Sequence record: NZ_CP104589.1
DNA: 64,000 nucleotides
DNA from: a plasmid
Direction: 5' to 3' (one strand)
Under the pieces are notes generated by a model that saw only the letters and a program-made list of their open reading frames with translations, did not search any database and was not told where the DNA came from. This document shows positions 4,478 to 26,367 of the stretch, piece after piece. Within the stretch, counting starts at the first letter, position 1, and each line of letters begins with the position of its first letter. The translations under genes and the position numbers were made by a program.

Positions 4478-4515
4478 AAGGGGCGAATAGAGAAAACGGA
4501 AAAAATCGTACGCTA
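4478..4515. repeat. 38-bp terminal inverted repeat (IRtnp) of the Tn21-subfamily transposon
   Basis: GGGGCGAATAGAGAAAACGGAAAAAATCGTACGCTAAG matches the Tn21/Tn501-type IR consensus; the tnpA stop lies inside it. Confidence 0.75.
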
Positions 4516-7479: not shown

Positions 7480-7482
7480 GGT

Positions 7483-8043: not shown

Positions 8044-8215
8044 GATGCCTCCATGGGCTGGATGGGCGGCAGGGCTTGCGTTGGTTTTTGGTTCCATTGC
8101 GCCCGAAGCCTTGAATTTGTCAGGCTGAAATCTATGACCTTGGCAAGCATGTGTCAAAGAATGTGAAAGCGGACTCTATTCTGACGGCGTGATGCGCCTT
8201 GCCTGACATCCAGTT
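8044..8215. promoter_or_regulatory. res region of the Tn21-like element, ending at the integron IRi; contains an IR-like fragment at about 8075-8105
   Basis: position between tnpR and IRi, consistent with an integron inserted into res. Confidence 0.45.
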
Positions 8216-8240
8216 TGTCGTTTTCAGAAGACGGCTGCAC
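8216..8240. repeat. class 1 integron IRi (25 bp)
   Basis: exact TGTCGTTTTCAGAAGACGGCTGCAC. Confidence 0.8.
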
Positions 8241-8417
8241 TGAACGTCAGAAGCCGACTGCACTATAGCAGCGGAGGGGTTGGATCCATCAGGCAACGAC
8301 GGGCTGCTGCCGGCCATCAGCGGACGCAGGGAGGACTTTCCGCAACCGGCCGTTCGATGCGGCACCGATGGCCTTCGCGCAGGGGTAGTGAATCCGCCAG
8401 GATTGACTTGCGCTGCC

Positions 8418-9431: not shown

Positions 9432-9499
9432 GGCTTGTTATGACTGTTTTTTTGTACAGTCTATGCCTCGGGCATCCAAGCAGCAAGCGCGTTACGCCG

Positions 9500-9576
9500 T
9501 GGGTCGATGTTTGATGTTATGGAGCAGCAACGATGTTACGCAGCAGGGCAGTCGCCCTAAAACAAAGTTAGCGCCC
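9500..9576. other. attI1 recombination site
   Basis: ...GCCCTAAAACAAAGTTAG immediately before the first cassette. Confidence 0.6.
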
Positions 9577-9974
9577 ATGGAAGGTATCAGCCACATCACG
9601 CTTATTGTCCGCGACCTCTCGCGCATGACCACCTTCCTTTGCGATGGTCTCGGTGCGCGAGAGGTTTATGACAGTGCTGGCCACAATTACTCGCTTTCCC
9701 GCGAGAAATTCTTTGTCCTTGGTGGCGTTTGGTTGGCCGCTATGGAGGGAGTGCCGCCATCTGAGCGCTCCTATCAGCATGTCGCCTTTCGGGTGAGTGA
9801 GTCAGATCTTGCCGTATATCAGGCAAGACTTGGGTCGCTGGGCGTGGAGATTCGCCCACCCAGGCCACGCGTGAATGGAGAGGGGCTGTCCCTGTACTTC
9901 TATGATTTTGACAACCATCTGTTTGAGCTGCACACCGGCACATTGGAGCAGCGCCTTGCCAGGTACGGAGCTGG

Positions 9975-9981
<7 letters not shown>
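9577..9981 (+). CDS. FosX/FosE-like fosfomycin resistance cassette (glyoxalase/VOC fold)
   Basis: MEGISHITLIVRDL...RPRVNGEGLSLYFYDFDNHLFELHTGTLEQRL matches the FosX family along its full length; starts 6 nt after the attI1 crossover. Confidence 0.8.
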
Positions 9982-10860
<879 letters not shown>

Positions 10861-10867
10861 CAGGCAG

Positions 10868-10944
10868 ATGCGGCATAACATGAAGTTGCAGCCGACCATC
10901 ACTCCGCTGCGCTCCGTTCTGGCGGCTGAACTTCGGCGTTAGGC
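10868..10944. other. attC of the blaVIM cassette
   Basis: ends in GTTAGGC followed by the canonical aacA4 cassette start ATCACAAAGTACAGCATC. Confidence 0.45.
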
Positions 10945-10962
10945 ATCACAAAGTACAGCATC

Positions 10963-11517
10963 GTGACCAACAGCAACGATTCCGTCACACTGCGCCTCAT
11001 GACTGAGCATGACCTTGCGATGCTCTATGAGTGGCTAAATCGATCTCATATCGTCGAGTGGTGGGGCGGAGAAGAAGCACGCCCGACACTTGCTGACGTA
11101 CAGGAACAGTACTTGCCAAGCGTTTTAGCGCAAGAGTCCGTCACTCCATACATTGCAATGCTGAATGGAGAGCCGATTGGGTATGCCCAGTCGTACGTTG
11201 CTCTTGGAAGCGGGGACGGATGGTGGGAAGAAGAAACCGATCCAGGAGTACGCGGAATAGACCAGTCACTGGCGAATGCATCACAACTGGGCAAAGGCTT
11301 GGGAACCAAGCTGGTTCGAGCTCTGGTTGAGTTGCTGTTCAATGATCCCGAGGTCACCAAGATCCAAACGGACCCGTCGCCGAGCAACTTGCGAGCGATC
11401 CGATGCTACGAGAAAGCGGGGTTTGAGAGGCAAGGTACCGTAACCACCCCAGATGGTCCAGCCGTGTACATGGTTCAAACACGCCAGGCATTCGAGCGAA
11501 CACGCAGTGATGCCTAA
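10963..11517 (+). CDS. aacA4: aminoglycoside 6'-N-acetyltransferase AAC(6')-Ib (not the -cr variant: W102 and D179 retained)
   Basis: [36 protein letters not shown]...GDGWWEEE... Confidence 0.95.
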
Positions 11518-11584
11518 CCCTTCCATCGAGGGGGACGTCCAAGGGCTGGCGCCCTTGGCCGCCCCTCATGTCAAACGTTAGCCA
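11508..11584. other. attC of the aacA4 cassette
   Basis: imperfect palindrome ending in GTTAGCC. Confidence 0.45.
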
Positions 11585-11597
11585 CCAAGAAGGTGCC

Positions 11598-12398
11598 ATG
11601 AAAACATTTGCCGCATATGTAATTACTGCGTGTCTTTCAAGTACGGCATTAGCTAGTTCAATTACAGAAAATACGTTTTGGAACAAAGAGTTCTCTGCCG
11701 AAGCCGTCAATGGTGTTTTCGTGCTTTGTAAAAGTAGCAGTAAATCCTGCGCTACCAATAACTTAGCTCGTGCATCAAAGGAATATCTTCCAGCATCAAC
11801 ATTTAAGATCCCCAACGCAATTATCGGCCTAGAAACTGGTGTCATAAAGAATGAGCATCAGGTTTTCAAATGGGACGGAAAGCCAAGAGCCATGAAACAA
11901 TGGGAAAGAGACTTGAGCTTAAGAGGGGCAATACAAGTTTCAGCGGTTCCCGTATTTCAACAAATCGCCAGAGAAGTTGGCGAAGTAAGAATGCAGAAAT
12001 ATCTTAAAAAATTTTCATATGGTAACCAGAATATCAGTGGTGGCATTGACAAATTCTGGTTGGAGGGTCAGCTTAGAATTTCCGCAGTTAATCAAGTGGA
12101 GTTTCTAGAGTCTCTATTTTTAAATAAATTGTCAGCATCAAAAGAAAATCAGCTAATAGTAAAAGAGGCTTTGGTAACGGAGGCTGCGCCTGAATATCTT
12201 GTGCATTCAAAAACTGGTTTTTCTGGTGTGGGAACTGAGTCAAATCCTGGTGTCGCATGGTGGGTTGGTTGGGTTGAGAAGGGAACAGAGGTTTACTTTT
12301 TCGCCTTTAACATGGATATAGACAACGAAAATAAGTTGCCGCTAAGAAAATCCATTCCCACCAAAATCATGGCAAGTGAGGGCATCATTGGTGGCTAA
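11598..12398 (+). CDS. blaOXA: OXA-10-family class D beta-lactamase (266 aa)
   Basis: [51 protein letters not shown]...STFKIPN...; a variant relative to OXA-10 as recalled. Confidence 0.93.
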
Positions 12399-12452
12399 CA
12401 ATTCGCTGCAGGCGCGACGGCCCTGACGGGCCGCGGCCTGAGCTCAAACGTT
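12399..12452. other. attC of the blaOXA cassette
   Basis: TAACAATTCG...GTTAAAC followed by the canonical aadA1 cassette start CATCATGAGGGAAGC. Confidence 0.4.
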
Positions 12453-12459
12453 AAACATC

Positions 12460-13251
12460 ATGAGGGAAGCGGTGATCGCCGAAGTATCGACTCAACTATC
12501 AGAGGTAGTTGGCGTCATCGAGCGCCATCTCGAACCGACGTTGCTGGCCGTACATTTGTACGGCTCCGCAGTGGATGGCGGCCTGAAGCCACACAGTGAT
12601 ATTGATTTGCTGGTTACGGTGACCGTAAGGCTTGATGAAACAACGCGGCGAGCTTTGATCAACGACCTTTTGGAAACTTCGGCTTCCCCTGGAGAGAGCG
12701 AGATTCTCCGCGCTGTAGAAGTCACCATTGTTGTGCACGACGACATCATTCCGTGGCGTTATCCAGCTAAGCGCGAACTGCAATTTGGAGAATGGCAGCG
12801 CAATGACATTCTTGCAGGTATCTTCGAGCCAGCCACGATCGACATTGATCTGGCTATCTTGCTGACAAAAGCAAGAGAACATAGCGTTGCCTTGGTAGGT
12901 CCAGCGGCGGAGGAACTCTTTGATCCGGTTCCTGAACAGGATCTATTTGAGGCGCTAAATGAAACCTTAACGCTATGGAACTCGCCGCCCGACTGGGCTG
13001 GCGATGAGCGAAATGTAGTGCTTACGTTGTCCCGCATTTGGTACAGCGCAGTAACCGGCAAAATCGCGCCGAAGGATGTCGCTGCCGACTGGGCAATGGA
13101 GCGCCTGCCGGCCCAGTATCAGCCCGTCATACTTGAAGCTAGACAGGCTTATCTTGGACAAGAAGAAGATCGCTTGGCCTCCCGCGCAGATCAGTTGGAA
13201 GAATTTGTTCACTACGTGAAAGGCGAGATCACCAAGGTAGTCGGCAAATAA
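12460..13251 (+). CDS. aadA1: aminoglycoside 3''-adenylyltransferase AadA1
   Basis: MREAVIAEVSTQLSEVVGVIERHLEPTLLAVHLYGSAVDGGLKPHSDIDLLVTV... matches AadA1 over its full length. Confidence 0.95.
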   Translation: MREAVIAEVSTQLSEVVGVIERHLEPTLLAVHLYGSAVDGGLKPHSDIDLLVTVTVRLDETTRRALINDLLETSASPGESEILRAVEVTIVVHDDIIPWRYPAKRELQFGEWQRNDILAGIFEPATIDIDLAILLTKAREHSVALVGPAAEELFDPVPEQDLFEALNETLTLWNSPPDWAGDERNVVLTLSRIWYSAVTGKIAPKDVAADWAMERLPAQYQPVILEARQAYLGQEEDRLASRADQLEEFVHYVKGEITKVVGK

Positions 13252-13379
13252 TGTCTAAAACAAAGTTAGATGCCAGATTTGGCGTTGCGTATGCTCACAG
13301 AAAATCGACAGCCGCAAGACTGTTTTTGGCAACTCATAGCCACCACTATTTCTCCTTCATACCGTAGAGGAGATTGCAC

Positions 13380-13712
13380 GTGAAGAACTGGCTCTTTCTG
13401 GCTATTGCAATATTTGGTGAGGTCGTCGCAACTTCCGCACTGAAGTCCAGCCATGGATTCACCAAGTTAGTTCCTTCTGTTGTAGTTGTGGCTGGCTACG
13501 GGCTTGCGTTCTATTTCCTCTCTCTCGCACTCAAGTCCATCCCGGTCGGCATTGCTTATGCTGTTTGGGCTGGCCTCGGCATCGTACTTGTGGCAGCTAT
13601 CGCTTGGATCTTCCATGGCCAGAAACTAGACTTGTGGGCGTTCGTTGGCATGGGACTTATCGTTAGTGGCGTCGCCGTTCTAAATCTGCTATCCAAGGTC
13701 AGCGCACATTGA
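13380..13712 (+). CDS. qacF: QacF/QacH-type SMR quaternary-ammonium efflux protein (GTG start, 110 aa)
   Basis: [33 protein letters not shown]...[10 protein letters not shown] matches QacF/H; GAGGAG RBS 7 nt upstream; IS26 begins 6 bp after the stop. Confidence 0.85.
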
Positions 13713-13718
13713 TCGGGC

Positions 13719-14538
13719 GGCACTGTTGCAAATAGTCGGTGGTGATAAACTTATCATCCCCTTTTGCTGATGGAGCTGCACATGAACCCATTCAAAGGCC
13801 GGCATTTTCAGCGTGACATCATTCTGTGGGCCGTACGCTGGTACTGCAAATACGGCATCAGTTACCGTGAGCTGCAGGAGATGCTGGCTGAACGCGGAGT
13901 GAATGTCGATCACTCCACGATTTACCGCTGGGTTCAGCGTTATGCGCCTGAAATGGAAAAACGGCTGCGCTGGTACTGGCGTAACCCTTCCGATCTTTGC
14001 CCGTGGCACATGGATGAAACCTACGTGAAGGTCAATGGCCGCTGGGCGTATCTGTACCGGGCCGTCGACAGCCGGGGCCGCACTGTCGATTTTTATCTCT
14101 CCTCCCGTCGTAACAGCAAAGCTGCATACCGGTTTCTGGGTAAAATCCTCAACAACGTGAAGAAGTGGCAGATCCCGCGATTCATCAACACGGATAAAGC
14201 GCCCGCCTATGGTCGCGCGCTTGCTCTGCTCAAACGCGAAGGCCGGTGCCCGTCTGACGTTGAACACCGACAGATTAAGTACCGGAACAACGTGATTGAA
14301 TGCGATCATGGCAAACTGAAACGGATAATCGGCGCCACGCTGGGATTTAAATCCATGAAGACGGCTTACGCCACCATCAAAGGTATTGAGGTGATGCGTG
14401 CACTACGCAAAGGCCAGGCCTCAGCATTTTATTATGGTGATCCCCTGGGCGAAATGCGCCTGGTAAGCAGAGTTTTTGAAATGTAAGGCCTTTGAATAAG
14501 ACAAAAGGCTGCCTCATCGCTAACTTTGCAACAGTGCC
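13719..14538 (+). mobile_element. IS26 (820 bp) with 14-bp IRs GGCACTGTTGCAAA
   Basis: exact IS26 left-end and right-end sequences; length 820 bp. Confidence 0.93.
13782..14486 (+). CDS. tnp26: IS26 transposase Tnp26 (IS6 family, 234 aa)
   Basis: MNPFKGRHFQRDIILWAVRWYCKYGISYRELQEMLAERGVNVDHSTIYRWVQRYAPE... Confidence 0.93.
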   Translation: MNPFKGRHFQRDIILWAVRWYCKYGISYRELQEMLAERGVNVDHSTIYRWVQRYAPEMEKRLRWYWRNPSDLCPWHMDETYVKVNGRWAYLYRAVDSRGRTVDFYLSSRRNSKAAYRFLGKILNNVKKWQIPRFINTDKAPAYGRALALLKREGRCPSDVEHRQIKYRNNVIECDHGKLKRIIGATLGFKSMKTAYATIKGIEVMRALRKGQASAFYYGDPLGEMRLVSRVFEM

Positions 14539-14725
14539 GCTTTGCAAGGGCAAAGCCCGCGTGACCATCGACACGGCGTTGATTCTCGGTAAGGCCTTTG
14601 GCACAGGCCCCGATTACTGGCTGGAGCTGCAACAAGCGGTTGATATTTGGGACGCGCTGCACAGCGAAAAACGAAAGGAACGGCTCGAAAGCATCGTGCC
14701 GTTGATGAAAATGGTAGCAGCATAA
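14539..14725 (+). pseudogene. 3' fragment of an XRE/HigA-family antitoxin gene truncated by IS26
   Basis: ...ALILGKAFGTGPDYWLELQQAVDIWDAL... is the typical HigA C-terminal helix pattern; the N-terminal part is replaced by IS26. Confidence 0.55.
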
Positions 14726-14909
14726 AAAGCGAAGCCCCGATGCTTTCCAACTTGGCGGGCGGAAAAGCGATCAGGGCTACATCACAGTGTGGGCGGTTTC
14801 GTTAGCAACTTGGCGGGAGCTAACGAGGTGGCCGATTGCCTAGCGGGGCATGGGGCACACGTGTCTATTATAGCGCGGGTGCCCCTCTAATCAAGTAGTA
14901 GGGGTTACA

Positions 14910-15629
14910 GTGGCACAACAACAAGCGGCACAACTGGCGCTATTCGACCAGACACAAGAGGCCAACACGTATCACGACGCCGGCCGGCGCGGGTTCTTCT
15001 CGCTGCTCACCAGCAAGGACAACGGCGACAAGCGGCAGTCCTCCCACCCTCTCAGCGAAATGGCTACCGTCCTGGGCATGGTGGACTCGACCCGTGACAC
15101 CTGGCTGTCACAAGCCGAGTTCTTCCGCCCTAATCGCCGCGTGGTCAATCTGCTACGTATTGGGCTGATGTTCGTGGACCTCGATACCTACCGGGTGCCC
15201 TGGGCGACAGGGCGAACGCCAGAGGAACAAGCAGCCGGCGTTATCTACTTCTGTCAAGCCGAAGGCCTGCCCCTGCCTTCGCTGATGATCTATTCCGGCC
15301 GAGGCCTGCAACTGAAATGGTTGCTCGATGCGCCAATCCCTCGCCAGGCCCTGCCCCGCTGGAACGCCTGCCAACGCCACCTGGTAGACAAGCTGGCCGA
15401 GCTGGGCGCCGATCCTGCCGCCAAGGATGCCAGCCGCGTGTTGCGCCTGGTCGATACGGTCAACACCAAGAGCGGGAACATCTGCCGCGTGGTCCACGTC
15501 CAGGAGGAAGCCGGCGAACCCGCCCGCTACAACTTCGAGTATCTTTGCGAAATGCTGCTGCCCGTGGCTCGCTGGGACATTGAAGCGCAACAAAAGCGCC
15601 GGCGCGACCGACAACTAACCCTGATACCT
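14910..15629 (+). pseudogene. hypothetical protein gene interrupted by the Tn5563-like transposon; a possible 3' remainder lies at 21885-21986
   Basis: 278-aa ORF whose last codons are encoded by the transposon IR; the third frame after the right IR continues for about 34 codons. Confidence 0.5.
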
Positions 15630-15669
15630 GGGGTTTGGGGAGCAATGGAACCAAAAACCAACGTAAGCC

Positions 15670-16602
15670 CTACCAACGCTTTTCGGTGTCTTCTTCCCAG
15701 GCGCCCATCTCGACAAAACAGTTGCGCATGTCGGCCTCCTGGCTGATCTCGGTCAGCAGGTCATGCACGCTCTTGTCCAGCTCATCGTCGCTCCGATACG
15801 GAATGGTCAACTCATAGTGGCCGGCATCCAGCCGCTTCATGCCATAGGGCTCCAGGCAGTAGCGCTCAATGTTCTCCGTGGCCCGCTTCCGGCCGCGCAC
15901 GAACTTGCTGTTATTCACCACCGCGAGGCGCAGGGTGACGGTGGCCACCCGCTCGGCGGCGGGCGGCTCTGCCGGCGACGCGGCCGAAGGCTGCTGGTCG
16001 CGTGACCTGGCGCTCTTCTGGTACGCGCCGATCTCGACACCACGGTGGCGCAGGTAGCTGTACAGCGTGCTCTTGGAGATGTGCAGCTTCTCGCCGATCG
16101 CGCTGACGCTCAGGCGACCTTCGCGGTAGAGGGTTTCGGCCGCCATGGCGGTGGCCTCAGCCTTGGCTGGCAGGCCCTTGGGACGGCCACCGATCCGGCC
16201 ACGCGCCCGTGCGGCCGACAGACCCGCCTGAGTCCGCTCGCGGATCAGCTCGCGCTCGAACTCCGCCAGCGAGGCGAACAGGTTGAACACCAGGCGGCCT
16301 TGGGCGTGGGTGGTGTCGATGGGGTCATTCAGGCTCTGTAAGCCGACCTTGCGCTCTGCCAGCTCGCCGACCAACTCGACCAGGTGCTTGAGGGAACGCC
16401 CAAGGCGATCCAGCTTCCAGATCACCACGGCATCACCCGGCCGCACGTTGGCCAGCAGTTTGTCCAACTCCGGCCGGGCGCTTTTCGCGCCGCTGGCGAT
16501 GTCTTGGTAGATGCGTTCGCACCCGGCCTGTTTCAGGGCATCGACTTGTAGGTCGGCTTTCTGATCCCGAGTGCTCACTCGCGCATAACCGATCTTCATC
16601 AA
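15670..16602 (-). CDS. tnpR: serine resolvase with long C-terminal extension (310 aa; ISXc5/Tn5044-type long TnpR)
   Basis: MMKIGYARVSTRDQKADLQVDALKQAGCERIYQD... resolvase N-terminal domain plus HTH, followed by a 120-aa extension. Confidence 0.85.
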   Translation of the reverse strand: MMKIGYARVSTRDQKADLQVDALKQAGCERIYQDIASGAKSARPELDKLLANVRPGDAVVIWKLDRLGRSLKHLVELVGELAERKVGLQSLNDPIDTTHAQGRLVFNLFASLAEFERELIRERTQAGLSAARARGRIGGRPKGLPAKAEATAMAAETLYREGRLSVSAIGEKLHISKSTLYSYLRHRGVEIGAYQKSARSRDQQPSAASPAEPPAAERVATVTLRLAVVNNSKFVRGRKRATENIERYCLEPYGMKRLDAGHYELTIPYRSDDELDKSVHDLLTEISQEADMRNCFVEMGAWEEDTEKRW

Positions 16603-16800
16603 AAGTACTGTTTACTCGACTACGTTAGTAATAGTTGAACTTTGATTAAGCGTACCAGTTATTTGAACCGTAGCGCGGGGAGCTTAACGAACCGAGCCAT
16701 TCCTCGATAGAGTTCGGCAAAACCTTCGTTTTGTCGAACCATTGCATCGCCCTTTGTGATTGGCGTATAAACACACAAACACCTATTAGCGGAGAACGCT

Positions 16801-17040
16801 ATGAATACCATTCGCTGGAATGTCGCCGTCTCGGCCGACACCGACCAGTCGCTTCGGATGTTTCTGGCCAGCCAGGGCGGCGGCCGTAAGGGCGACCTGT
16901 CGCGCTTCATCGAAGAAGCGGTACGGGCACACATCCTGGAGCTGAGCGCTGAGCAGGCCAAGGCCGCTAACGCCCATCTGAGTGAGGCAGAATTGACCAA
17001 CGCGGTTGACGAAGCGCTCGACTGGGCACGTAAGCGCTGA
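16801..17040 (+). CDS. putative ribbon-helix-helix antitoxin (79 aa)
   Basis: small ORF directly upstream of and overlapping (ATGA) the PIN gene; lies between res/tnpR and tnpA as in Tn3-family toxin-antitoxin modules. Confidence 0.6.
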   Translation: MNTIRWNVAVSADTDQSLRMFLASQGGGRKGDLSRFIEEAVRAHILELSAEQAKAANAHLSEAELTNAVDEALDWARKR

Positions 17041-17450
17041 TGCGGGTCGTGTTGGATACCAACATCCTGTTCAGCGCCCTGATCTCGCCACATGGCGCGC
17101 CCGATGCGATCTACCGTGCCTGGCGGGCGGCGCGTTTCGAGGTGGTGACCTCGCGGATGCAACTCGATGAAATTCGTCGAGCCAGCCGCTATCCCAAGCT
17201 TCAGGCCATCCTACAGCCCGCCAAGGTGGGCGCCATGATCAATAACCTGCAACGGGCTGTGGTACTGGAGCGCCTGACCATCGAGGTCGAAGCCGATGAT
17301 CCGGATGACTCGTTTTTGCTGGCCATGGCCTTGGCGGGCGATGCGGACTACCTGGTAACCGGTGATCGCCGCGCCGGCCTGCTGCAACGCGGGCACATCG
17401 AACGCACGCGGATCGTCACGCCCGCCGTGTTCTGCGTCGAGGTGCTGTGA
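17040..17450 (+). CDS. PIN-domain toxin (VapC-like, 136 aa)
   Basis: MRVVLDTNILFSAL...EVVTSRMQLDEIRRA...LVTGD: the acidic PIN residues are present. Confidence 0.75.
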   Translation: MRVVLDTNILFSALISPHGAPDAIYRAWRAARFEVVTSRMQLDEIRRASRYPKLQAILQPAKVGAMINNLQRAVVLERLTIEVEADDPDDSFLLAMALAGDADYLVTGDRRAGLLQRGHIERTRIVTPAVFCVEVL

Positions 17451-17453
17451 TCA

Positions 17454-20447
17454 ATGCCGGTCGGTTTTCTGACTCAAGAGCAACGCGACGGTTTTGGCCG
17501 CTATGTTGATTCGCCCAGCCGTGAAGAGCTGGAACGTTACTTCCACCTGAGCGATGAAGACCGTGAAGCCATCCAGGTGCTGCGGGGTAACCATAACCGT
17601 CTGGGTTATGCCGTTCTGCTGACCACCGTCCGCTTCGTTGGCGTTCTGCCGGACAAGCCCGCCGCCGTGCCGGTGGAAGTCCTGCAGGTGCTTTGCCGAC
17701 AACTGGCGATTCCAGACCCCGACTGCCTCCAGCGCTATAGCGATCATCGCCGCTGGATACATGCCACCGATATTCAGAACCGCTTTGGCTATCGTCATTT
17801 CACCGATCCGGGCATCGGCTTTCGCTTGAGCCGCTGGCTGTATGCCCTCTGCTGGACGGGCACCGACCGGCCGGGAGTGCTGTTTGAGCGAGCCACCTCG
17901 TGGCTGTTCACACAGAAAGTCCTCCTGCCTGGTGTGTCTCAACTAGAGCGCTTTATCGCCCAGTTGCGCAGTCGGGTCGAAGAACGCCTCTGGTTTACGC
18001 TGGGCCGCAGCGTGACTGAGGAACAGCGATTGCAACTGCAAGACTTGCTGACGGTGGCCGAAGGCAACCGCAGCTCCCGGCTGGATCAATTGCGCTCCGG
18101 CCCGGTCATGGTCAGTGGCCCCGCGTTGATTCGGGCACTGCGCCGGCTCGATGACGTGCGCGGCATCGGCATCACCTTGCCGGCGGCGGCGCACATCCCT
18201 CCCAGCCGTATCGCCGCCCTGGCCCGCTTCGCCAACACGGCCAAGGTCACCGCGATTAATCGGCTGCCGGCGTCGCGGCGGATGGCGACACTGGTGGCCT
18301 TCGCACTCTGCCTGGAGGCGACTGCGCACGACGACGCACTGGAAGTCCTGGAGGCCTTGCTGCGCGACCTGTTCAGCAACGCGGAGAAGGCCGACAAGAA
18401 AGCCCGCATGCGCAGCCTGAAAGACCTGGATCGGTCGGCCGCGACGCTCGCCGCCGCGTGCAAGGTCGTGCTGGACAGCTCGATCAGCGATGACAACGTG
18501 CGCGCCCGGCTGTTCAACGACCTGCCGAGGACCACCCTGGAAAAGGCCCTGGAAGAGGTCAACGCGCTGATCCGCCCGGTAGATGACGTCTATTTTCTTG
18601 CATTGGAAGCGCGCTACCGCAGCGTGCGCCGCTTCCTGCCCGACCTGCTCAAGCACATCCGCTTCGGCTTCAGCCCGGCCGGCAAGGGCGTGGCGGCTAG
18701 TCTGGAGTGGCTGCAACTGAACCTGCCGCGCCGGAAGCCAGAGGATGACGCGCCGCAGGAGATCGTGGCCAAGGCTTGGCAGAAGCACATCACCCGCGAA
18801 GATGGCTCCCTCGACATGGGTGCCTATGTGTTCTGCACGCTCGATGCGCTGCGCACGGCCCTGCGCCGCCGCGATGTCTTCGTCTCGCCCAGTTGGCGCT
18901 ATGCCGACCCGCGCCTTGGCCTGCTCGACGGTGCCGAATGGCTGGCGGCGCGACCGATCATCTGCCGGTCACTGGGCCTGACCATCGACGCCAAAACCAC
19001 CCTGGACGCCTTGTCCGTCGAGCTGGATGCAACCTGGCTGGCAGTAGCCGCGCGCCTGCCCGACAACCCGGCGATTCAACTGAGCGAGAACACCGAGGGC
19101 AAGACCGAACTGTCGCTCGGGGCGCTGGACAAGCTGGACGAGCCCTGCTCGTTGCTGCAACTGCGGGCGGCCGTGTCTGACCTGATGCCGCGTGTCGATC
19201 TGCCGGAAATCCTCTTGGAAATCGCCGCCCGCACTGGCTTTTCCGAGGCCTTCACCCATGTCTCCGAACGCAATGCACGCGCCGACAACCTGGTCACCAG
19301 CCTCTGCGCGGTGCTGTTGGGCGGGGCCTGCAACACCGGCCTGGAGCCCTTGATCCGCACCGACAACCCGGCGCTGCGCCGTGACCGGCTGTCCTGGGTC
19401 AGCCAGAATTATATCCGCGACGACACCCTGTCAGCGGCTAACGCCATCCTGGTCGGAGCGCAAAGCCAACTGGAACTGGCCCAAGTCTGGGGTGGCGGCG
19501 AGGTCGCCTCCGCCGATGGCATGCGCTTCGTCGTACCGGTGCGCACCGTGCATGCCGGCCCCAATCCGAAGTATTTCGGCACCGGCCGGGGTGTCACCTG
19601 GTACAACCTGATTTCCGACCAATTCTCCGGCCTCAACGCCATCACCGTGCCCGGCACGCTGCGCGACAGCCTGGTGTTGCTGGCGGTCGTGCTGGAACAG
19701 CAGACCGAGTTGCAGCCGACGCAAATCATGACCGACACCGGGGCCTACAGCGATGTGGTGTTCGGGCTCTTCCGCCTACTTGGCTACCACTTCAGTCCGC
19801 GGCTGGCCGATGTCGGCGGTACCCGCTTCTGGCGCACGCGCCCGGACGCGGACTACGGCAAGCTCAACGGGCTGGCCCGCCAGTCGGTCAAACTCGACCT
19901 GATCGCCGAGCACTGGGACGACCTGCTGCGCCTGGCCGGCTCGCTCAAACTCGGCCGGGTGCCGGCGACTGGCATCATGCGCACGCTGCAAACGGGAGAT
20001 AGACCCACCCGGCTGGCCCAGGCGCTGGCCGAATTCGGGCGGATCGAAAAGACTCTGCACACGTTGACCTATATCGACGACGAGTCCAAGCGCCGCGCCA
20101 CCCTGACCCAGTTGAACCGAGGCGAAGGCCGGCACAGCCTGGCCCGCGCCGTGTTCCACGGCAAACGCGGCGAGCTCCGCCAGCGCTACCGCGAAGGCCA
20201 GGAAGACCAGCTCGGTGCTCTGGGCCTGGTGGTGAACATCATCGTGCTGTGGAACACCCTCTACATGACGGCGGCCGTGGAACGGCTCAAGCAGCACGGC
20301 TATCCAGTGCTGGAAGAGGATTTGGCCCGGCTATCGCCGCTGATCTACGAGCACATCAACATGCTCGGGCGGTATTCCTTTGCGGTACCGGAAGAAGTTG
20401 CGCGCGGCGAGCTGCGGCCACTGCGTAATCCAGACGACGACCTGTGA
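17454..20447 (+). CDS. tnpA: Tn3-family transposase TnpA (997 aa)
   Basis: Tn3-family DDE transposase architecture; shares blocks with the Tn21 TnpA in this window. Confidence 0.93.
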   Translation: MPVGFLTQEQRDGFGRYVDSPSREELERYFHLSDEDREAIQVLRGNHNRLGYAVLLTTVRFVGVLPDKPAAVPVEVLQVLCRQLAIPDPDCLQRYSDHRRWIHATDIQNRFGYRHFTDPGIGFRLSRWLYALCWTGTDRPGVLFERATSWLFTQKVLLPGVSQLERFIAQLRSRVEERLWFTLGRSVTEEQRLQLQDLLTVAEGNRSSRLDQLRSGPVMVSGPALIRALRRLDDVRGIGITLPAAAHIPPSRIAALARFANTAKVTAINRLPASRRMATLVAFALCLEATAHDDALEVLEALLRDLFSNAEKADKKARMRSLKDLDRSAATLAAACKVVLDSSISDDNVRARLFNDLPRTTLEKALEEVNALIRPVDDVYFLALEARYRSVRRFLPDLLKHIRFGFSPAGKGVAASLEWLQLNLPRRKPEDDAPQEIVAKAWQKHITREDGSLDMGAYVFCTLDALRTALRRRDVFVSPSWRYADPRLGLLDGAEWLAARPIICRSLGLTIDAKTTLDALSVELDATWLAVAARLPDNPAIQLSENTEGKTELSLGALDKLDEPCSLLQLRAAVSDLMPRVDLPEILLEIAARTGFSEAFTHVSERNARADNLVTSLCAVLLGGACNTGLEPLIRTDNPALRRDRLSWVSQNYIRDDTLSAANAILVGAQSQLELAQVWGGGEVASADGMRFVVPVRTVHAGPNPKYFGTGRGVTWYNLISDQFSGLNAITVPGTLRDSLVLLAVVLEQQTELQPTQIMTDTGAYSDVVFGLFRLLGYHFSPRLADVGGTRFWRTRPDADYGKLNGLARQSVKLDLIAEHWDDLLRLAGSLKLGRVPATGIMRTLQTGDRPTRLAQALAEFGRIEKTLHTLTYIDDESKRRATLTQLNRGEGRHSLARAVFHGKRGELRQRYREGQEDQLGALGLVVNIIVLWNTLYMTAAVERLKQHGYPVLEEDLARLSPLIYEHINMLGRYSFAVPEEVARGELRPLRNPDDDL

Positions 20448-20459
20448 TCCCCCTAAACG

Positions 20460-20672
20460 CTATGAGCAACACCCAAGCTGCTGCTGGATCGGCGGGCACT
20501 TCACCGAGCCGAACGAACAGAAAACGCAGCAATCCCCTGGGTTGGGGCGCAGCAGCGCCTTGCAGTTGCTGCACTCGTAATAGAACTGGCAGGCGTCCGT
20601 GGGCATGGTTTCCGGCTTGGCGAAGCCGCAGCGCGGGCAAGTCAGCACGGACTCAAGGACAATGGCGCTCAT
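20460..20672 (-). CDS. Cys-rich GDCC-motif putative metal-binding protein (70 aa)
   Basis: CPRCG...CSNC...GDCCVFCS; small proteins of this kind are found in mer loci. Confidence 0.55.
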   Translation of the reverse strand: MSAIVLESVLTCPRCGFAKPETMPTDACQFYYECSNCKALLRPNPGDCCVFCSFGSVKCPPIQQQLGCCS

Positions 20673-20679
20673 CGTGACC

Positions 20680-20955
20680 TCACTTCTGCACTGTGGAGGG
20701 GTATCCCGCGTTCGCGGTCGCCTCAGTCAGTGCCTCGGGCTGGGCCTTATCGGGATCGTAGGTGACGGTCGCCGTCTTCTGGTCGAAATTGACCTGGACG
20801 TCACTCACGCCGGACACCTTCTCCAGCGACTTCTTGACCGTGATCGGACAGAGTCCGCACGTCATGTTCTGCACGTCGAGCGTGACGGTTTTCGGGGGAG
20901 CCGCCAGCGCCACGAAGGGCAAGGCGAAAAGCACGGCGATCAGCAGTTTGCGCAT
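20680..20955 (-). CDS. merP: periplasmic mercury-binding protein MerP
   Basis: signal peptide plus the GMTCxxC-type motif (QNMTCGLCPITVKKSLEKV). Confidence 0.85.
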   Translation of the reverse strand: MRKLLIAVLFALPFVALAAPPKTVTLDVQNMTCGLCPITVKKSLEKVSGVSDVQVNFDQKTATVTYDPDKAQPEALTEATANAGYPSTVQK

Positions 20956-20967
20956 GGTTAATCTCCT

Positions 20968-21324
20968 TCAGTAGAACAGCGGGGCGAGCCACGGCACGGC
21001 CAATAGGCCGAGCAGCAGCACGCTGACGATCCAGAACACGAGTCGCTGTCGCACGAGCGTGCGCGGATCGGCGCAGGGTGTACCTGGCGTACAAACCTGT
21101 GGCACCAGGTAGAGCTTGCGGAATGCCAATCCCAGGAACAGTAGAGTCAACCCGATTAAGAGGGGGCGTAGTGGCTCCATCATGGTCAGAGCGCCCACCC
21201 ACGTACCGCCGACACCGAGTGCCAACAGCACCAGTGGCCCGACACAGCACACCGACGCACCGATGGCGGTCAGCGAACTCGCGACCAGCGAGCCTTTCCC
21301 GGTGAGTTGCATCCCCATTCCCAT
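20968..21324 (-). CDS. merT: mercuric ion transporter MerT
   Basis: CCVGPLVLLALG first helix Cys pair plus a second Cys pair; typical MerT topology. Confidence 0.85.
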   Translation of the reverse strand: MGMGMQLTGKGSLVASSLTAIGASVCCVGPLVLLALGVGGTWVGALTMMEPLRPLLIGLTLLFLGLAFRKLYLVPQVCTPGTPCADPRTLVRQRLVFWIVSVLLLGLLAVPWLAPLFY

Positions 21325-21362
21325 CTCCTGAGCCTGATTGCCTAGGTGCTATTCTAAACTCC

Positions 21363-21381
21363 GTACCAAAGTACGGAATCA
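21363..21381. promoter_or_regulatory. MerR operator dyad (CCGTAC-N4-GTACGG) in the merR/merT divergent promoter
   Basis: CTCCGTACCAAAGTACGGAA between merT and merR. Confidence 0.5.
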
Positions 21382-21389
21382 AGGAGAAA

Positions 21390-21791
21390 GTGATGGCCAC
21401 AGAGCTGACCATTGGCAAGCTGGCAGACGCCGCCGGGGTGAACGTCGAGACGATCCGCTACTACCAGCGACGCGGGCTGCTGGATGAACCAGCCAAACCC
21501 TTGGGTGGCCATCGGCGCTATCCGGTGGACATGGTGAAGCGACTGCGTTTCATCAAGCGGGCTCAGGCGCTGGGTTTCACGCTCTCGGAAGTCGGTGGAC
21601 TGCTGACGCTGGATGAGTCGTGCGCCTGTGCCGAAACGCGAGCACGGGCTGCACGCAAGCTCGCGTTGATCGAGCAGAAGATGGCCGACTTGGTCGTCAT
21701 GCAGCAACTGTTAGGCGAACTGGTGCAGCAATGTGATGCGGGAGACGGCGGAACGATCTGCCCGATCATCGAGGCACTGATCAGAGAGTAA
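21390..21791 (+). CDS. merR: MerR-family metal-responsive regulator
   Basis: N-terminal HTH LTIGKLADAAGVNVETIRYYQRRGLL plus C-terminal Cys residues. Confidence 0.8.
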   Translation: MMATELTIGKLADAAGVNVETIRYYQRRGLLDEPAKPLGGHRRYPVDMVKRLRFIKRAQALGFTLSEVGGLLTLDESCACAETRARAARKLALIEQKMADLVVMQQLLGELVQQCDAGDGGTICPIIEALIRE

Positions 21792-22018
21792 TGCCTGGCG
21801 GGTGAGCTGGAGATCGGAAAGCCCCTTTACGGTGGGATTCAGAGCTTACGTTGGTTTTTGGTTCCATTGCTCCCCAAACCCCACCACCTGGCCAGCGGCA
21901 TCTATGATGACCGGCCAATCACGCTGCGGTGGCCAGCACGGCGGACGGTAGTTCGGCGCATCAGGAATCGCTAGGGGCGAGTCGATGCCGAGGCCAAGTT
22001 CGGAAAGAATATTTTTCG

Positions 22019-23509
22019 TCATGCTGATCTTTGTCGCAGTTCTGCCAATCGGATGAAGCCATCCCAGGCCGGGTGGTAGTCACCTTCACTTATGCGCGCT
22101 CTGGCTTCTTCGACCCAAAGCCTGCGGACCTCGCTACTTTCTTCGAAGAAGCGCAGTTTGGCCGTCAGCCGATCGATCACCAGCAGGGCCGGATGCTCTG
22201 TCGTCAGGTGCTTACCCGAACTGGATGGGCGGTAGCGTGCCAGTTCAAGCGATTTGAGGTGGCGCAAGCTACCGAGAGACCACACATGATCCTCACTTTC
22301 GATATCCCGGTGCTGGGTACAGAACAGGCAACCGGCAGCATTGATGCAGTCGGGTCGCGGACCATTCTTCGGCATCGTGCCCACTGGTTCAGGTGTGGCC
22401 GATACACATCTACCAGGAGCAGGAGGTGAAAGGGACGGATCGGTTTGCTGATGGAAGCGCGTAATTTCCACCATAGCGATCTGCGGATGGGGGTCGGCAT
22501 ATACGCGTATCAGCGTTTGCACCGTATGCTGGGCCAACTCCGCAACCTGTTGGGGATTCTGGGACTCCCGAAGCAACCAGTTGATGCGCGTCCCGCGCAG
22601 TTTTCGCGGTCTCACTATCGGTATGCCAAGCTCGCGGCAGATGCGCGTAACGTTCGTGAACTGCGTCGCCTCTTCTAGGATTCGTCCCCCGCTACGTATA
22701 AGCGGAAAGAGCAAACCATCCGGCTCATTGGGAAACCATTCGGAACGCCATTCGAGATAGCGCTCGAACCACTCTCGATAACTGGCAAAGATCTCGAATA
22801 GCACTTCTCCTTCCCGTCGATTTTTGTAGGTACGTACCTGGTAGCCGTCTATGTGGCTGGTGTAATGAAACTGCTCAACCCGCAGGGTATGTGCTTGCTG
22901 GAGGTTCAGACCGGTCTGGGCGATGAACATCAGCAATTCACTCTCGATCCGTAAATTGACGATGGGGAAACGGGTCCGCAGTGTCCGATCTGCATCGTGG
23001 GCGGCACGCGCCGCCAGGGATGCTTCGATTTGCGCTTGGTTTTGCGGCCTGGTACGGCGGGCCGCTACTTTCTCGGGGCTCTGCAATCCCGACCATAGTT
23101 CCAGCACTTGGCCGGTGCGTAACGAAATACAAACTGGGAGGGGGGCCATTGTCCCCCTCCAGGTCAATGCCTCGCATACGTCAGCTAGAAGGTGTCCGAA
23201 TGCGAAGGTGTTTTGCAGATTCTGCTTGTCCGCTTTGCTCGTATGTACCTTGCCTTTGCCGCGCGGCTTGCGAATACGTGTGCTCTTGCTCAGGCTTGCT
23301 TGGCGGTCCAATGCTCGGTCCAGCATCGTCGCCGTGAGCCTGGTGAGATCGTACAGGGACCCATCGCTGAAATTGCGTTCGACTCGATGACGCTGGAGCA
23401 AGTGATCGGTCCAACGAATGAACGTGTCGGCCGCCGTCTCGAGACTGAGATTCACGTTTTCTGAATCGATCCAGGCAAAGAATCGGCGCAATGCACTGAT
23501 CTTGTTCTG
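22019..23509 (-). pseudogene. tyrosine recombinase B, C-terminal 496 codons; gene split by the IS256-family insertion
   Basis: R...H..R/...LAQHTVQTLIRVYADPH catalytic-tail pattern; reading frame continuous with 24854-25085 once the IS and one TSD copy are removed. Confidence 0.6.
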
Positions 23510-23517
23510 CACCGAGA

Positions 23518-24845
23518 GAGGGTGTGCAGAATTTTGTGTAACCGGGGTTGGGGTTATTGCTGCGGCAGCCGGTCTTCGTAGCTGATCGTAAAGCGCGTCA
23601 GCGCCGCCTTCCAGTCACGGATCGGCATCGTCCATTTCTTGCTGATGTTGCGTAGCGCCAGGTAGAAGAGTTTCATCAGCGCCTCGTCGCTGGGGAACGA
23701 GCCGCGGTTCTTGGTGATCTTGCGCAAGCTCATGTTCACCGATTCGATGGCGTTGGTGGTGTAGATCACCTTGCGGATCTCTGGCGGGAAGTCGAAGAAC
23801 GGCGTGATCCTGGCCCAGTTGCGTCGCCAGGACTGGCCAATCGGCAGGTAGTCGTCATCCCACTTGGCCTCGAACTCGCCAAGGCGCAGTTCGGCCTCGT
23901 CAGCCGTGCTGGCTTGGTAAATCCGTTTCAGGTCAGCGGCGACTTCAGCCCGCCGCTTCCAGGACACGTAGTTCAGGCTGTGCCTGACCATGTGCACGAT
24001 GCACAGCTGCACGCTGGTGTGCGGGAACACCGCCTCGATGGCCTCGGGGAAGCCCTTCAGGCCATCCACGCAGGCAACGAAGATGTCCTGCACACCGCGG
24101 TTGCGCAGCTCGGTCACCACCTGCAACCAGAACTTGGCGCCCTCGTTCTGGGCGATCCATAGGCCGAGGATTTCCTTCTCGCCAGCCAGATTGATGCCCA
24201 GCGCCAGATAGACCGCCTTCACCCGCACGGCGCCCTCGCGCACCTTGGTGTGGATGCAGTCGAGGTAGACGATGGGATACACCGCATCGAGCGGGCGCGA
24301 CTGCCAGGACTTGACCTCATCGGCCACGGCATCGGTCACTGAGGAGATCAGGCTGGGCGACACCTCGGCGCCGTACATTTCCTGCAAGTGCGCCTGGATC
24401 TCGCGCACCGTCATGCCGCGGGCATACAGCGAAAGGATCTTGTCGTCGAAGCCCGTCCAGCGGGTCTGGTGCTTCTCGACGATCTGCGGATCGAAGGTGC
24501 CATGCCGGTCGCGCGGCACCTCGATGGGCAGTTCGCCGAACTCGCCCTTGAGTTTCTTCCTGCTGAAACCGTTGCGCGTGTTGCCGGTCGGGTTGCTGAC
24601 CGGCTGATGCTTGTCGTGGCCCAGGTGGTGGGTCAACTCCGCATCCAGTGCACGCTCGACCAGCTTCTTGGTCAGCTGCTTGAGGATGCCGTCGGCACCG
24701 ATCAGGTCTTCAGGTTTCTGGTAGTTGGCCAGGAGCTGATCCAGCAGCTCGTCGGTGATGGGGTGTTTCGTCTTGCTCATGGTGTCTCCGGTGCGGAGCG
24801 ACAGTGTCGCTCATGAGCCGGTTACACAAAAATTCGGACACCCTC
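23518..24845 (-). mobile_element. IS256-family insertion sequence (1328 bp) with 8-bp TSD CACCGAGA
   Basis: imperfect 28-bp IRs (GAGGGTGTGCAGAATTTTGTGTAACCGG and GAGGGTGTCCGAATTTTTGTGTAACCGG); identical 8-mers at 23510-23517 and 24846-24853. Confidence 0.8.
23554..24780 (-). CDS. IS256-family (Mutator-type) transposase, 408 aa
   Basis: MSKTKHPITDELLDQLL...; DDE transposase of the IS256 family. Confidence 0.9.
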   Translation of the reverse strand: MSKTKHPITDELLDQLLANYQKPEDLIGADGILKQLTKKLVERALDAELTHHLGHDKHQPVSNPTGNTRNGFSRKKLKGEFGELPIEVPRDRHGTFDPQIVEKHQTRWTGFDDKILSLYARGMTVREIQAHLQEMYGAEVSPSLISSVTDAVADEVKSWQSRPLDAVYPIVYLDCIHTKVREGAVRVKAVYLALGINLAGEKEILGLWIAQNEGAKFWLQVVTELRNRGVQDIFVACVDGLKGFPEAIEAVFPHTSVQLCIVHMVRHSLNYVSWKRRAEVAADLKRIYQASTADEAELRLGEFEAKWDDDYLPIGQSWRRNWARITPFFDFPPEIRKVIYTTNAIESVNMSLRKITKNRGSFPSDEALMKLFYLALRNISKKWTMPIRDWKAALTRFTISYEDRLPQQ

Positions 24846-24853
24846 CACCGAGA

Positions 24854-25085
24854 AGCGACTTCCGCCACCAGCAAGGTCGTCAGTCATGTGCTCATGCAGC
24901 TGCGTCACCAGCTCGAAACGTTCCGGCAAGGGACTGCCGAGTTCGCCCTGCGCGATCTGGCGGCCCACATGCTTCACCTTTGCTGCTGCACCTCCGCGAA
25001 ACAGCAGCGGCCGGAGGTCCCAGGGCGTTTCAGTGGCCCCATACTCAAGCATCGGGAAAGTGAGGTCGAATTCGGAACTATCCAT
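24854..25085 (-). pseudogene. tyrosine recombinase B, N-terminal part (start ATG overlaps the stop of recombinase A: ATGGATAG)
   Basis: MDSSEFDLTFPMLEYG...; frame analysis across the IS insertion. Confidence 0.5.
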
Positions 25086-26367
25086 CGTGCCGCGCCCCAG
25101 CGCCGATCCCGCTAAATGCCGCCATGAAGCTATTTGAGAGGGCTTGTTTGATCGGCAGTGCCTGTACGAATCGGATGTATTTGAAGGTGGTGGCTTCAGA
25201 GTTAGGCCCATGGAGCAACGCGTCGCTGACCGTCGCAATTACAATAGCGACATCGGCACAAGCCGATAGCGCCAGACGTGCCAATTCGGTACCGAAGGTG
25301 CAGCGCGACTGATGGAAGCGGAATTTACGGAGCACCTGTAGTTCTGCTTTGACGCCCCGTTTTCGAAACTCGGACATCTCAACATTCACAGCAGATGACT
25401 GATCGGTGCCGCGCCTGCCATAGGCGTTACCAAAGCGGGTCAAGAACAGCAAATCACGATTCTCGGGCGAGGCTTTCGCCTCTCGTTCCATCCTCCGCCA
25501 GCCTTTGGCATATTCCAGCAATTCATCACGCAACGCTTCGGGTATCCAGACCTGGCCAGTCACACCGAATTTCGTGTGCACTGGCGGAGCTGCGCCTGGA
25601 CCAACTGCAAGGCGTAGAAGCCCTTCAGCGGAAGGGTCGGGGGCGGCGCGCTCCAGAGACTGAATCTTGAGATCACAGATGCTGCCGAGCCGCATCCCGG
25701 TAAAAAATCCAAGGGCCAACATGAGGTAGAGCTCGGGCGTGGCGTTCTCTGCGGCGAAATCCAGAATTGCATCGCGATCGGTCTCCGAGACTGGCAACAG
25801 CCCATCTTCAAGCGTTTGGCCTGGGCGCTTACGGTTCGGGATGCTGAGGTCGGTGGTGGTTCCGCTGATCGTTCGCTCGAACCCCACCCGGTCGAAGTAT
25901 TTAACGACGTAGGGTTTTTCCCGCCACAGCTGGACGTGTGGAGAAAGAAGCTCCCTATGCCTTACCCACCGATAGAACATGATGCAATTGCGCATGTACT
26001 CAGACGCCGTGGATGGGCCGATCTGGCCGGCATCGCGCATCTTGATCAACGCCCCTCGGTATAGCACCAGGCAGCGGTCAGCTTTGCGAGCGGGAAACTC
26101 GAACCACTGCAAATCACGAGATTCAAGAAATTTAGCGTAATTGAGAAGGCCATTCATGTTACTGGCAACGGTCTTAAGAGAAGCGTCACCAGTCGTTGCT
26201 CGCTCCACTGCCCACAGGTTTGCCTCCCTCCAAGGTGCATAGTCTGCCCAAAAGATTTGGGGCAAGCCCTCAATGGATGGCCGGCTGCTACTGGGGGAGT
26301 ATGCGACGGCGTTCTCTCTGCGCACGAGGTAATGGGGCACGAAATGAATGCGCTCTAGCGTCGCCAT
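25078..26367 (-). CDS. tyrosine recombinase A (phage-integrase family, 429 aa)
   Basis: box I ...GFFTGMRLGSI..., box II RFHQSRCTFGTE, LLHGPNSEATTFKYIRF. Confidence 0.75.
   Translation of the reverse strand: MATLERIHFVPHYLVRRENAVAYSPSSSRPSIEGLPQIFWADYAPWREANLWAVERATTGDASLKTVASNMNGLLNYAKFLESRDLQWFEFPARKADRCLVLYRGALIKMRDAGQIGPSTASEYMRNCIMFYRWVRHRELLSPHVQLWREKPYVVKYFDRVGFERTISGTTTDLSIPNRKRPGQTLEDGLLPVSETDRDAILDFAAENATPELYLMLALGFFTGMRLGSICDLKIQSLERAAPDPSAEGLLRLAVGPGAAPPVHTKFGVTGQVWIPEALRDELLEYAKGWRRMEREAKASPENRDLLFLTRFGNAYGRRGTDQSSAVNVEMSEFRKRGVKAELQVLRKFRFHQSRCTFGTELARLALSACADVAIVIATVSDALLHGPNSEATTFKYIRFVQALPIKQALSNSFMAAFSGIGAGARHDG

Follow-up and report, generated by a model that had tools for sequence, protein, structure and literature searches.

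A copy of Tn5563 with a merA-less mercury cargo and flanks from two different insertion events

Why would a transposon carry genes for importing mercury and no reductase to deal with it, and why do the target sequences at its two ends fail to match? The element that raises these questions occupies positions 15630-21882 (6253 bp) of a 64,000-nucleotide stretch of a plasmid (sequence record NZ_CP104589.1), referred to here as the window, from which all coordinates are counted unless another record is named. An earlier note on this stretch had described a Tn5563-like transposon with mercury transport genes, no merA, and a toxin-antitoxin (TA) pair. We are highly confident of the following account as a whole: the element is an intact copy of Tn5563, its cargo is free of merA, and its flanks derive from two different insertion events. 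For the transposon itself this adds nothing new, as its transposition, the position of its TA pair and its effect on Hg tolerance have all been published. What the analysis chiefly offers is the right name for the element, a revised reading of its flanks and a reference to experiments already done.

Identity of the element

On the evidence of its sequence, the element is Tn5563 itself, an intact copy, which goes beyond the label "Tn5563-like". It aligned base for base with the copy in pRA2 (NC_005909.1), 6251 of the 6253 positions being the same (99.97%). Both the length, which the earlier note had given as that of Tn5563, and the similarity that it had proposed to check were thereby borne out. 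One of the two single-nucleotide polymorphisms (SNPs) is silent and lies in tnpA; the other yields the MerT variant WP_028697165, which is also present in pWTJH17 (P. aeruginosa, NZ_CP073083.1). A base-by-base comparison with the pWTJH17 copy showed identity at 6253 of 6253 positions. The gene content that had been listed (resolvase, TA pair, tnpA, a cysteine-rich GDCC gene, merP, merT and merR) was confirmed by Pfam and NCBIfam profiles.

The ends of the element were equally well defined. A repeat search of the window returned a single long inverted repeat spanning 15629/15630 to 21882/21883, and the terminal 38-mer occurred exactly twice in the 64 kb, once per strand, and not at all in 100 shuffles of the window. 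The repeats had been reported as perfect and 38 bp long; perfect they are, but reading both ends gives 39 bp, the length stated in the literature for Tn5563 and Tn5563a. With 39 perfectly paired bases, the element shows the Tn3-family trait of ~38-bp inverted repeats starting with GGGG. It belongs to the Tn3 family, Tn3 subgroup, and displays every testable defining trait except the target duplication.

Tn5563 of pRA2 was described by Yeo et al. 1998 and its isoform Tn5563a (KJ920395) by Szuplewska 2014; Tn5563a (6253 bp) has been caught transposing into a trap plasmid (PMC4133298; PMC4447125). In the plasmid database PLSDB (72,556 plasmids), megablast with the element matched 591 plasmid records. 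At least 80% of the element was covered at one place in 180 plasmids, and 235 had a match of at least 99%. The matches were mostly from Pseudomonas, and also from Klebsiella, Aeromonas, Citrobacter, Enterobacter and Serratia. Another copy was seen in a P. aeruginosa chromosome (CP110346.1, locus L095, 8882-19347), at a different locus from that of the window; there, a Tn5393-type strA-strB transposon is inserted between the GDCC gene and tnpA, and the annotated GDCC protein is lengthened to 91 amino acids (aa).

The flanks and their origin

The 5-bp target duplication characteristic of the Tn3 family was absent: the element is bordered by TACCT on the left and ACCAC on the right, in agreement with the earlier observation that no clean duplication could be found. 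The accompanying proposal that the insertion splits one hypothetical gene (14910-15629 plus about 21885-21986) did not survive comparison with uninterrupted homologues, which showed that the flanks are parts of two unrelated genes on opposite strands. The duplication is missing because the flanks come from two different genes.

The left flank is cut by IS26 (13719-14538) on one side and by Tn5563 on the other, and is 99.8-100% identical to the higA-rep segment of small conjugative plasmids (pVIM-20710, pEIB202, and plasmids of Piscirickettsia and Aeromonas). The open reading frame (ORF) from 14910 comprises the first 240 codons of a 450-aa replication protein that is intact in pVIM-20710, and the uninterrupted target reads ...GATACCT/GGCGGCC in NZ_CP030081.1 (a slash marks the junction point here and below). 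On the right lies the beginning of a 679-aa gene, which many plasmids of Pseudomonas and Klebsiella carry ahead of two tyrosine integrase genes; its uninterrupted target reads ...GGCTC/ACCACCTGG in NZ_CP063457.1 and pMKPA34-1. The remaining halves of the rep gene and the 679-aa gene are absent from the window.

The right junction of the window was present in 0 of the 72,556 PLSDB plasmids. The left junction is common to two P. aeruginosa megaplasmids, pWTJH17 and pAFM-PA19-3158, in which the DNA to the right differs. pWTJH17 has a right flank different from that of the window, and in pAFM-PA19-3158 (NZ_CP140112.1, locus L105, 3394-3435) a Tn402-like tni element sits in res and the right end was not seen. 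Furthermore, in p716811-VIM (NZ_MN310372.1, locus L106, 9841-9880) Tn5563 meets the same rep gene with its other end, in the opposite orientation, at a second site (equivalent to window position 15554). The association between rep and Tn5563 recurs.

Judged from its two junctions, the copy is chimeric, with the TACCT and ACCAC halves stemming from two different insertion events. We propose that the left junction arose by insertion into the rep gene of a small resistance plasmid, and the right junction by insertion into the gene adjoining two tyrosine integrases. The resistance plasmid would have fused to the host element via Tn5563, either through a replicative cointegrate or through recombination between two copies, and in the copy at the fusion's far end, the rep half would remain to the left and the host target to the right. 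Most of the small plasmid would later have been removed by IS26. A cointegrate that was later pruned, or a recombinant of two copies, is the probable origin of the chimeric copy.

Several observations weigh against this account. The reciprocal junctions, ...GGCTCACCAC/IRL and IRR/TACCTGGCGGCC (IRL and IRR being the element's terminal inverted repeats on the left and on the right), were absent from the window and from PLSDB when searched with synthetic queries (in sequence form, ...CAACGGCTCACCAC/GGGGTTTGGGG and CCCCAAACCCC/TACCTGGCGGCCGCC). As they were not found, we infer the rearrangement pathway and do not reconstruct it. Likewise, only 1,093 bp of the pVIM-20710 backbone are left in the window, ending at IS26, and the cointegrate model cannot be reconstructed from so short a remnant. 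The surviving junctions would be the same after cointegrate formation, homologous recombination, res-site recombination or intramolecular transposition. In RefSeq, the copy in pRA2 (locus L001) itself lies between ATTTT (2996-3000) and TAGCT (9254-9258) with no duplication, and beside this record stand papers that cite 5- or 7-bp direct repeats for Tn5563. Finally, a simple scan found no sigma-70 promoter for the TA-tnpA unit; a sigma-70 and terminator scan of the whole element gave no more than chance level.

Among 10 other full-length copies sampled, 5 had clean AT-rich 5-bp duplications and 5 had none, the pRA2 copy being one of the latter. Tn5563 normally makes a 5-bp duplication, which is often lost by later rearrangement; the duplication is a trait of the insertion event and not of the element. 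The right-hand TAGCT of the pRA2 copy is shared by pKPC-038c.

The alternative that fares best is intramolecular replicative transposition, in which Tn5563 in the rep fragment attacked the integrase-adjoining gene of its own molecule, with deletion or inversion of the DNA between them and no fusion of replicons. Such an event also leaves one old and one new junction, precise repeat ends and no matching duplication. It is consistent with the loss of the remainders of both disrupted genes from the window, and with the second, opposite junction in the rep gene of p716811-VIM, which indicates that the region rearranges repeatedly. We nevertheless regard it as unlikely: the 64 kb hold no second, inverted copy of Tn5563, and the left junction occurs on different replicons with different right-hand DNA, which repeated fusions of the same donor explain equally well. 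The present data fit the intramolecular pathway and the fusion pathway alike. A single insertion that split one gene, with the duplication blurred by mutations or by a slipped target (ACCTG, 3 bp away), can be dismissed almost with certainty: ACCT does stand on both sides (left, TACCT/; right, /ACCACCTGG), but intact left homologues continue ...GATACCT/GGCGGCCGCC within the rep gene on the + strand, intact right homologues are preceded by ...CCAACGGCTC/ACCACC within the 679-aa gene on the - strand, and the two flanks, being unrelated genes from different replicons, refute it.

If replicon fusion is what took place, as we favor, the chimeric flanks are a marker of a VIM-type resistance plasmid of the pVIM-20710/pEIB202 kind that was fused into a Pseudomonas-type element via Tn5563 and trimmed by IS26. 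Such fusion and trimming would be one route by which carbapenemase regions pass between replicons.

The mer cargo and its fourth gene

The cargo had been described as lacking merA, and this was upheld. phmmer with Tn21 proteins, including MerA, MerC, MerD and MerE from R100 as queries and positive control, found no MerA, MerC, MerD or MerE homologue in the 64-kb window. Only MerT, MerP and MerR were matched, and the MerA query was matched only through the HMA domain of MerP, which carries the only HMA motif in the window. Likewise, no CxNxGCxPSK motif was present in the six frames of the 64 kb, the element included. Because the defining reductase is absent, the element is not strictly a mercury resistance operon and should not be filed as one.

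The genes that are present look functional for sensing and uptake. In alignment to Tn21, MerT keeps the CC pair of its first transmembrane segment and the cytoplasmic C-x5-C pair; it scored 120.7 bits against NF010314, under the equivalog cut-off of 150, and passed the cut-off of PF02411. MerR keeps three Cys equivalent to C82, C117 and C126 of Tn21 MerR, and the operator/promoter aligns with Tn21 merOP, TTGACT-CCGTACATGAGTACGGAAG-TAAGGT. The MerR-controlled merT-merP-GDCC operon would bring Hg(II) into the cytoplasm, and it encodes no reductase. Import of Hg(II) with no detoxification, as had been suggested for this element, agrees with published data for Tn5563a (6253 bp): in 15 hosts, the minimum inhibitory concentration (MIC) of Hg(II) went down at least 2-fold in 6 and significantly up in 2 (Dziewit et al. 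2015, PMC4447125). The fall was ascribed by those authors to uptake without reduction (PMC4447125), and the HgCl2 sensitivity assay that the earlier note proposed is thus already in print (Dziewit et al. 2015, PMC4447125).

The operon ends with a further gene. According to the RefSeq annotation, a 70-aa GDCCVxC protein is encoded 7 nt downstream of merP; its gene (GDCC) is the last of the merT-merP operon, with a GAGG ribosome-binding site that overlaps the merP stop, and its end lies 12 nt from the stop codon of the convergent tnpA. The cited Tn5563 papers ignore it and list the cargo as merP, merT and merR only. A literature search found no paper with the family name 'GDCCVxC', which is given only by NCBIfam NF041374. 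The family comprises 4139 90%-clusters, 2992 50%-clusters at E <= 0.001, and at least 594 species-representative genomes, and the GDCCVFC motif and 10 Cys were invariant in 20 diverse homologues. No solved relative was found in a PDB sequence search, which gave a non-significant zinc-ribbon resemblance (E = 0.18), and the AlphaFold model was of low confidence (predicted local distance difference test, pLDDT, 59.6).

To place the gene in context, a census was made of 80 species-representative GDCC loci with 8 kb on each side; it is biased toward close relatives of the query, and merA elsewhere in the genomes is invisible to it. MerT and MerP were encoded directly upstream of GDCC on the same strand in 30 of the 80 loci, 22 of which also had a divergent MerR. 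MerC was directly upstream in one locus (L035, 2997-4351), and Bacteroidota loci had MerT and MerP as one fusion. None of the 80 loci had an ORF that reached the NCBIfam MerA cut-off within 8 kb, and a Tn3-family transposase was nearby in only one. Flavoprotein ORFs near GDCC in two loci (L027 and L037) scored 314.7 and 378.1 bits against the MerA cut-off of 454.45 and were not counted as MerA. In Noviherbaspirillum (L027, 8277-9623), a glutathione reductase/MerA-like ORF below the MerA cut-off directly follows merRTP-GDCC.

The same organization was found away from Tn5563. In Ralstonia, merR / merT-merP-GDCC again has 7 nt between merP and GDCC and comes with neither merA nor Tn5563, and Acidobacteria have a MerP-like gene and GDCC separated by the same gap, merT and merR not being called there. 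In the modules closest to that of Tn5563, GDCC, MerP and MerT were 72-91% identical; for MerR, the identity was 73-75% in three of these four modules and 41% in the remaining one (L014). Classic mer operons from PLSDB matched the mer DNA of Tn5563 only in short stretches, at up to 72% identity. GDCC also occurs in fusions, namely MerC+GDCC in two separate clusters and in one ORF of a metagenome-assembled genome, HMA+GDCC, and partial MerT+GDCC (instances: L058, 2389-2991; proteins P0182, P0228, P0205 and P0197).

The conserved neighborhoods suggest that merR, merT, merP and GDCC form a merA-independent four-gene module, and not a truncated operon or the remnant of a fresh deletion. The census also suggests that GDCC is a cytoplasmic partner of the Hg(II) importer. 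As a tentative extension, we propose that the 'defective' mer locus of Tn5563 could be a complete, ancient merR / merT-merP-GDCC unit that was captured whole, with GDCC as the cytoplasmic end-point of Hg(II) import. GDCC would then receive the metal from MerT (or MerC) and retain it or pass it along; whether its role is sequestration, hand-off or redox is speculation. The proposal is compatible with the recurrence of the merA-less unit across phyla, with other merA-less units as its nearest kin, and with fusions that place GDCC at MerC's cytoplasmic end. If this proposal is true, the locus would provide regulated Hg uptake and sequestration that needs no reductase.

According to the rival explanation, the mer genes are what decay has left of a full Tn5044-type mer operon: a deletion derivative minus merA, made up of defective, neutral or harmful hitch-hikers among which the Cys-rich ORF is irrelevant. 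Published labels point that way ('defective mer locus' in Dai 2016; 'deletion derivative of Tn5044' in Dziewit 2015, PMC4447125), as do the 6 of 15 hosts whose Hg MIC fell and the transposition and TA modules common to Tn5044 and Tn5563. Weighed with Tn5044 known from published descriptions, this explanation seems to us improbable. The same unit without merA exists outside transposons in Ralstonia, and the merP-GDCC pair with the same gap in Acidobacteria; in the census, the 30 loci with merT-merP upstream, like the other 50, had no MerA-level ORF, and a single locus had a Tn3-family transposase. Moreover, the nearest modules are 72-91% identical in GDCC, MerP and MerT, as against 48-51% to Tn21, the metal-binding Cys and the MerR operator are all intact, and GDCC is fused to MerC elsewhere. 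GDCC, likely the fourth and conserved gene of a mercury module that is widespread and lacks merA, offers a modest lead and a cheap target for the study of non-reductive mercury handling.

Remaining features and comparison with known systems

The features of the element and its immediate flanks are collected in Table 1.

Table 1. Coordinates, strands and supporting evidence for Tn5563 and the adjoining gene fragments in the window.
Feature	Position	Strand	Evidence
Left flank, remnant of a pVIM-20710/pEIB202-type plasmid, with the 3' part of higA and the replication gene's first 720 bp (14910-15629)	14539..15629	+	
IRL, 39-bp terminal inverted repeat of Tn5563 (GGGGTTTGGGGAGCAATGG...)	15630..15668	+	perfectly complementary to 21844-21882
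tnpR, long serine resolvase, 309 aa from ATG	15670..16599	-	PF00239 157.9 bits
res site: III 16604-16632, II 16638-16678, I 16712-16739	16604..16739	-	exact matches to predicted Tn5563a subsites
RHH_6 antitoxin (VapB-like), 79 aa	16801..17040	+	PF16762 144.3 bits
PIN_3 toxin (VapC-like putative RNase), 136 aa	17040..17450	+	PF13470 67.4 bits; TIGR00305 59.6 bits (cut-off 29.15)
tnpA, Tn3-family DDE transposase, 997 aa, full length	17454..20447	+	PF01526 506 bits; DUF4158 174 bits; NF033527 1015 bits (cut-off 500)
GDCCVxC-domain protein, 70 aa, 11 Cys, no hydrophobic segment	20460..20672	-	NF041374 105.6 bits (cut-off 40)
merP, periplasmic Hg(II)-binding protein	20680..20955	-	TIGR02052 106.3 bits (cut-off 92.55); MTCGLC motif kept; 51% identical to Tn21 MerP
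merT, inner-membrane Hg(II) importer	20968..21324 (RefSeq start 21318)	-	PF02411 112.6 bits; 48% identical to Tn21 MerT
mer operator/promoter: TTGATT, 19-20-nt spacer with perfect dyad TCCGTAC-N4-GTACGGA, TAGAAT	21351..21382	-	
merR, Hg(II)-responsive regulator, divergent	21393..21791	+	TIGR02051 178.8 bits (cut-off 150.85); 50% identical to Tn21 MerR
IRR, 39-bp terminal inverted repeat	21844..21882	-	pairs with IRL
Right flank, first ~140 bp (~46 codons) of the 679-aa gene WP_155684878	21883..22022	-	

The sequence of TnpR is that of WP_003150544.1, the resolvase annotated in pRA2 and pWTJH17; the mechanical ORF, which starts from a TTG at 16602, would give 310 aa. Its catalytic domain and helix-turn-helix occupy residues 1 to ~190 and are followed by a C-terminal extension of ~120 aa with no Pfam match. 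The three res subsites of Tn5563a are those predicted in Table S2 of Lima-Mendez et al. 2020 (PMC7157771), and subsite I was found separately in the window as a 12-nt inverted repeat. From what is known of the family, TnpA would bind the 39-bp repeats and copy the element replicatively into a new site, giving a donor-target cointegrate that TnpR would resolve at the three-subsite res.

The TA pair had been said to match the described Tn3 arrangement by lying between res and tnpA, and it does: res subsite I (16712-16739) is followed by the antitoxin gene from 16801, the toxin gene ends at 17450, and tnpA begins 3 nt past that end, at 17454. The antitoxin stop and the toxin start share 1 nt (TGATG), and the acidic residues of PIN_3 are present as read from the sequence (D6, E44, D87-D90 and D108). 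The layout '<tnpR A> T> tnpA>' with PIN_3/RHH_6 has been tabulated for Tn5563a, Tn5044, Tn5046, Tn1412 and TnXc elements (Lima-Mendez et al. 2020, PMC7157771), and by sequence and position the module fits this published Tn3-associated class. The pair is probably co-transcribed with tnpA and may act as an addiction or transposition-linked module. The cited Tn3-TA and Tn5563 literature yielded no toxicity or stabilisation experiment on the Tn5563 pair.

Beyond the left flank, IS26 is complete (820 bp), its 14-bp terminal repeats being found twice, and it abuts the higA-rep remnant at 14538/14539; homology to pVIM-20710 and pWTJH17 stops at the IS26 boundary. Within another, distinct Tn3-family transposon (988-aa TnpA, 4513-7479), positions 4479-13722 hold a class 1 integron region with intI1, a VIM-type metallo-beta-lactamase gene, an OXA-10-family gene and others, and this region is 100% identical to parts of P. 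aeruginosa IncP-2-type megaplasmids. Beyond the right flank, 22019-26367 contains two adjacent tyrosine-recombinase genes, which together with the truncated 679-aa gene make up a set of three genes that is widespread among plasmids of Pseudomonas and Klebsiella. An IS256-family insertion of 1325 bp (Transposase_mut, 23518-24842) interrupts the 576-aa integrase. The rest of the window, 26400-64000, had almost no match among the 72,556 plasmids (26.4-50 kb likewise) and is probably a chromosomal island or an integrative and conjugative element. Encoded there are a Fic protein (27812-29014), a DUF4942 protein (37314-39044) and a UvrD-like helicase (53211-54770), and an IS605 OrfB/TnpB with a Cas12f-like TNB domain lies at 59040-60308.

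Among known systems, the closest is Tn5563 of pRA2 (NC_005909.1, Pseudomonas alcaligenes), with its isoform Tn5563a: the 6253 bp, the 39-bp repeats, the gene order and the res subsites are the same, and the window copy departs from the pRA2 copy in the two SNPs, in its flanking DNA and in having no target duplication. Tn5044, Tn5046, Tn1412 and TnXc4/TnXc5 share the '<tnpR res A> T> tnpA>' layout, the long resolvase and near-identical res subsites, Tn5044 differing from Tn5563a by one base, in subsite III (PMC7157771). They differ in cargo: as described in the literature, Tn5044 and Tn5046 carry complete mer operons with merA, and the TnXc elements carry other genes. VapBC-type type II TA systems have the same RHH antitoxin gene overlapping a downstream PIN toxin gene, with the PIN acidic residues kept. 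Unlike ordinary VapBC, the Tn5563 pair is embedded in the transposition module between res and tnpA.

The narrow-spectrum mer operons of Tn21 and Tn501 (merRTP(C)ADE) share with Tn5563 the divergent merR, an over-long promoter spacer that contains the operator dyad, and merT and merP, whose metal-binding Cys are all kept. In contrast to Tn21, whose proteins are 48-51% identical, Tn5563 has no merA, merC, merD or merE and instead has a GDCCVxC gene after merP; thus Hg(II) uptake and sensing are possible and reduction is impossible. The stand-alone merR-merT-merP-GDCC loci of Ralstonia, Pandoraea, Paraburkholderia, Pseudomonas, Acidobacteria and others, on chromosomes as well as plasmids, have the same four genes (in Acidobacteria, the MerP-like gene and GDCC were called) in the same order with the same 7-nt gap, and differ from Tn5563 in lying outside any Tn5563-type transposon.

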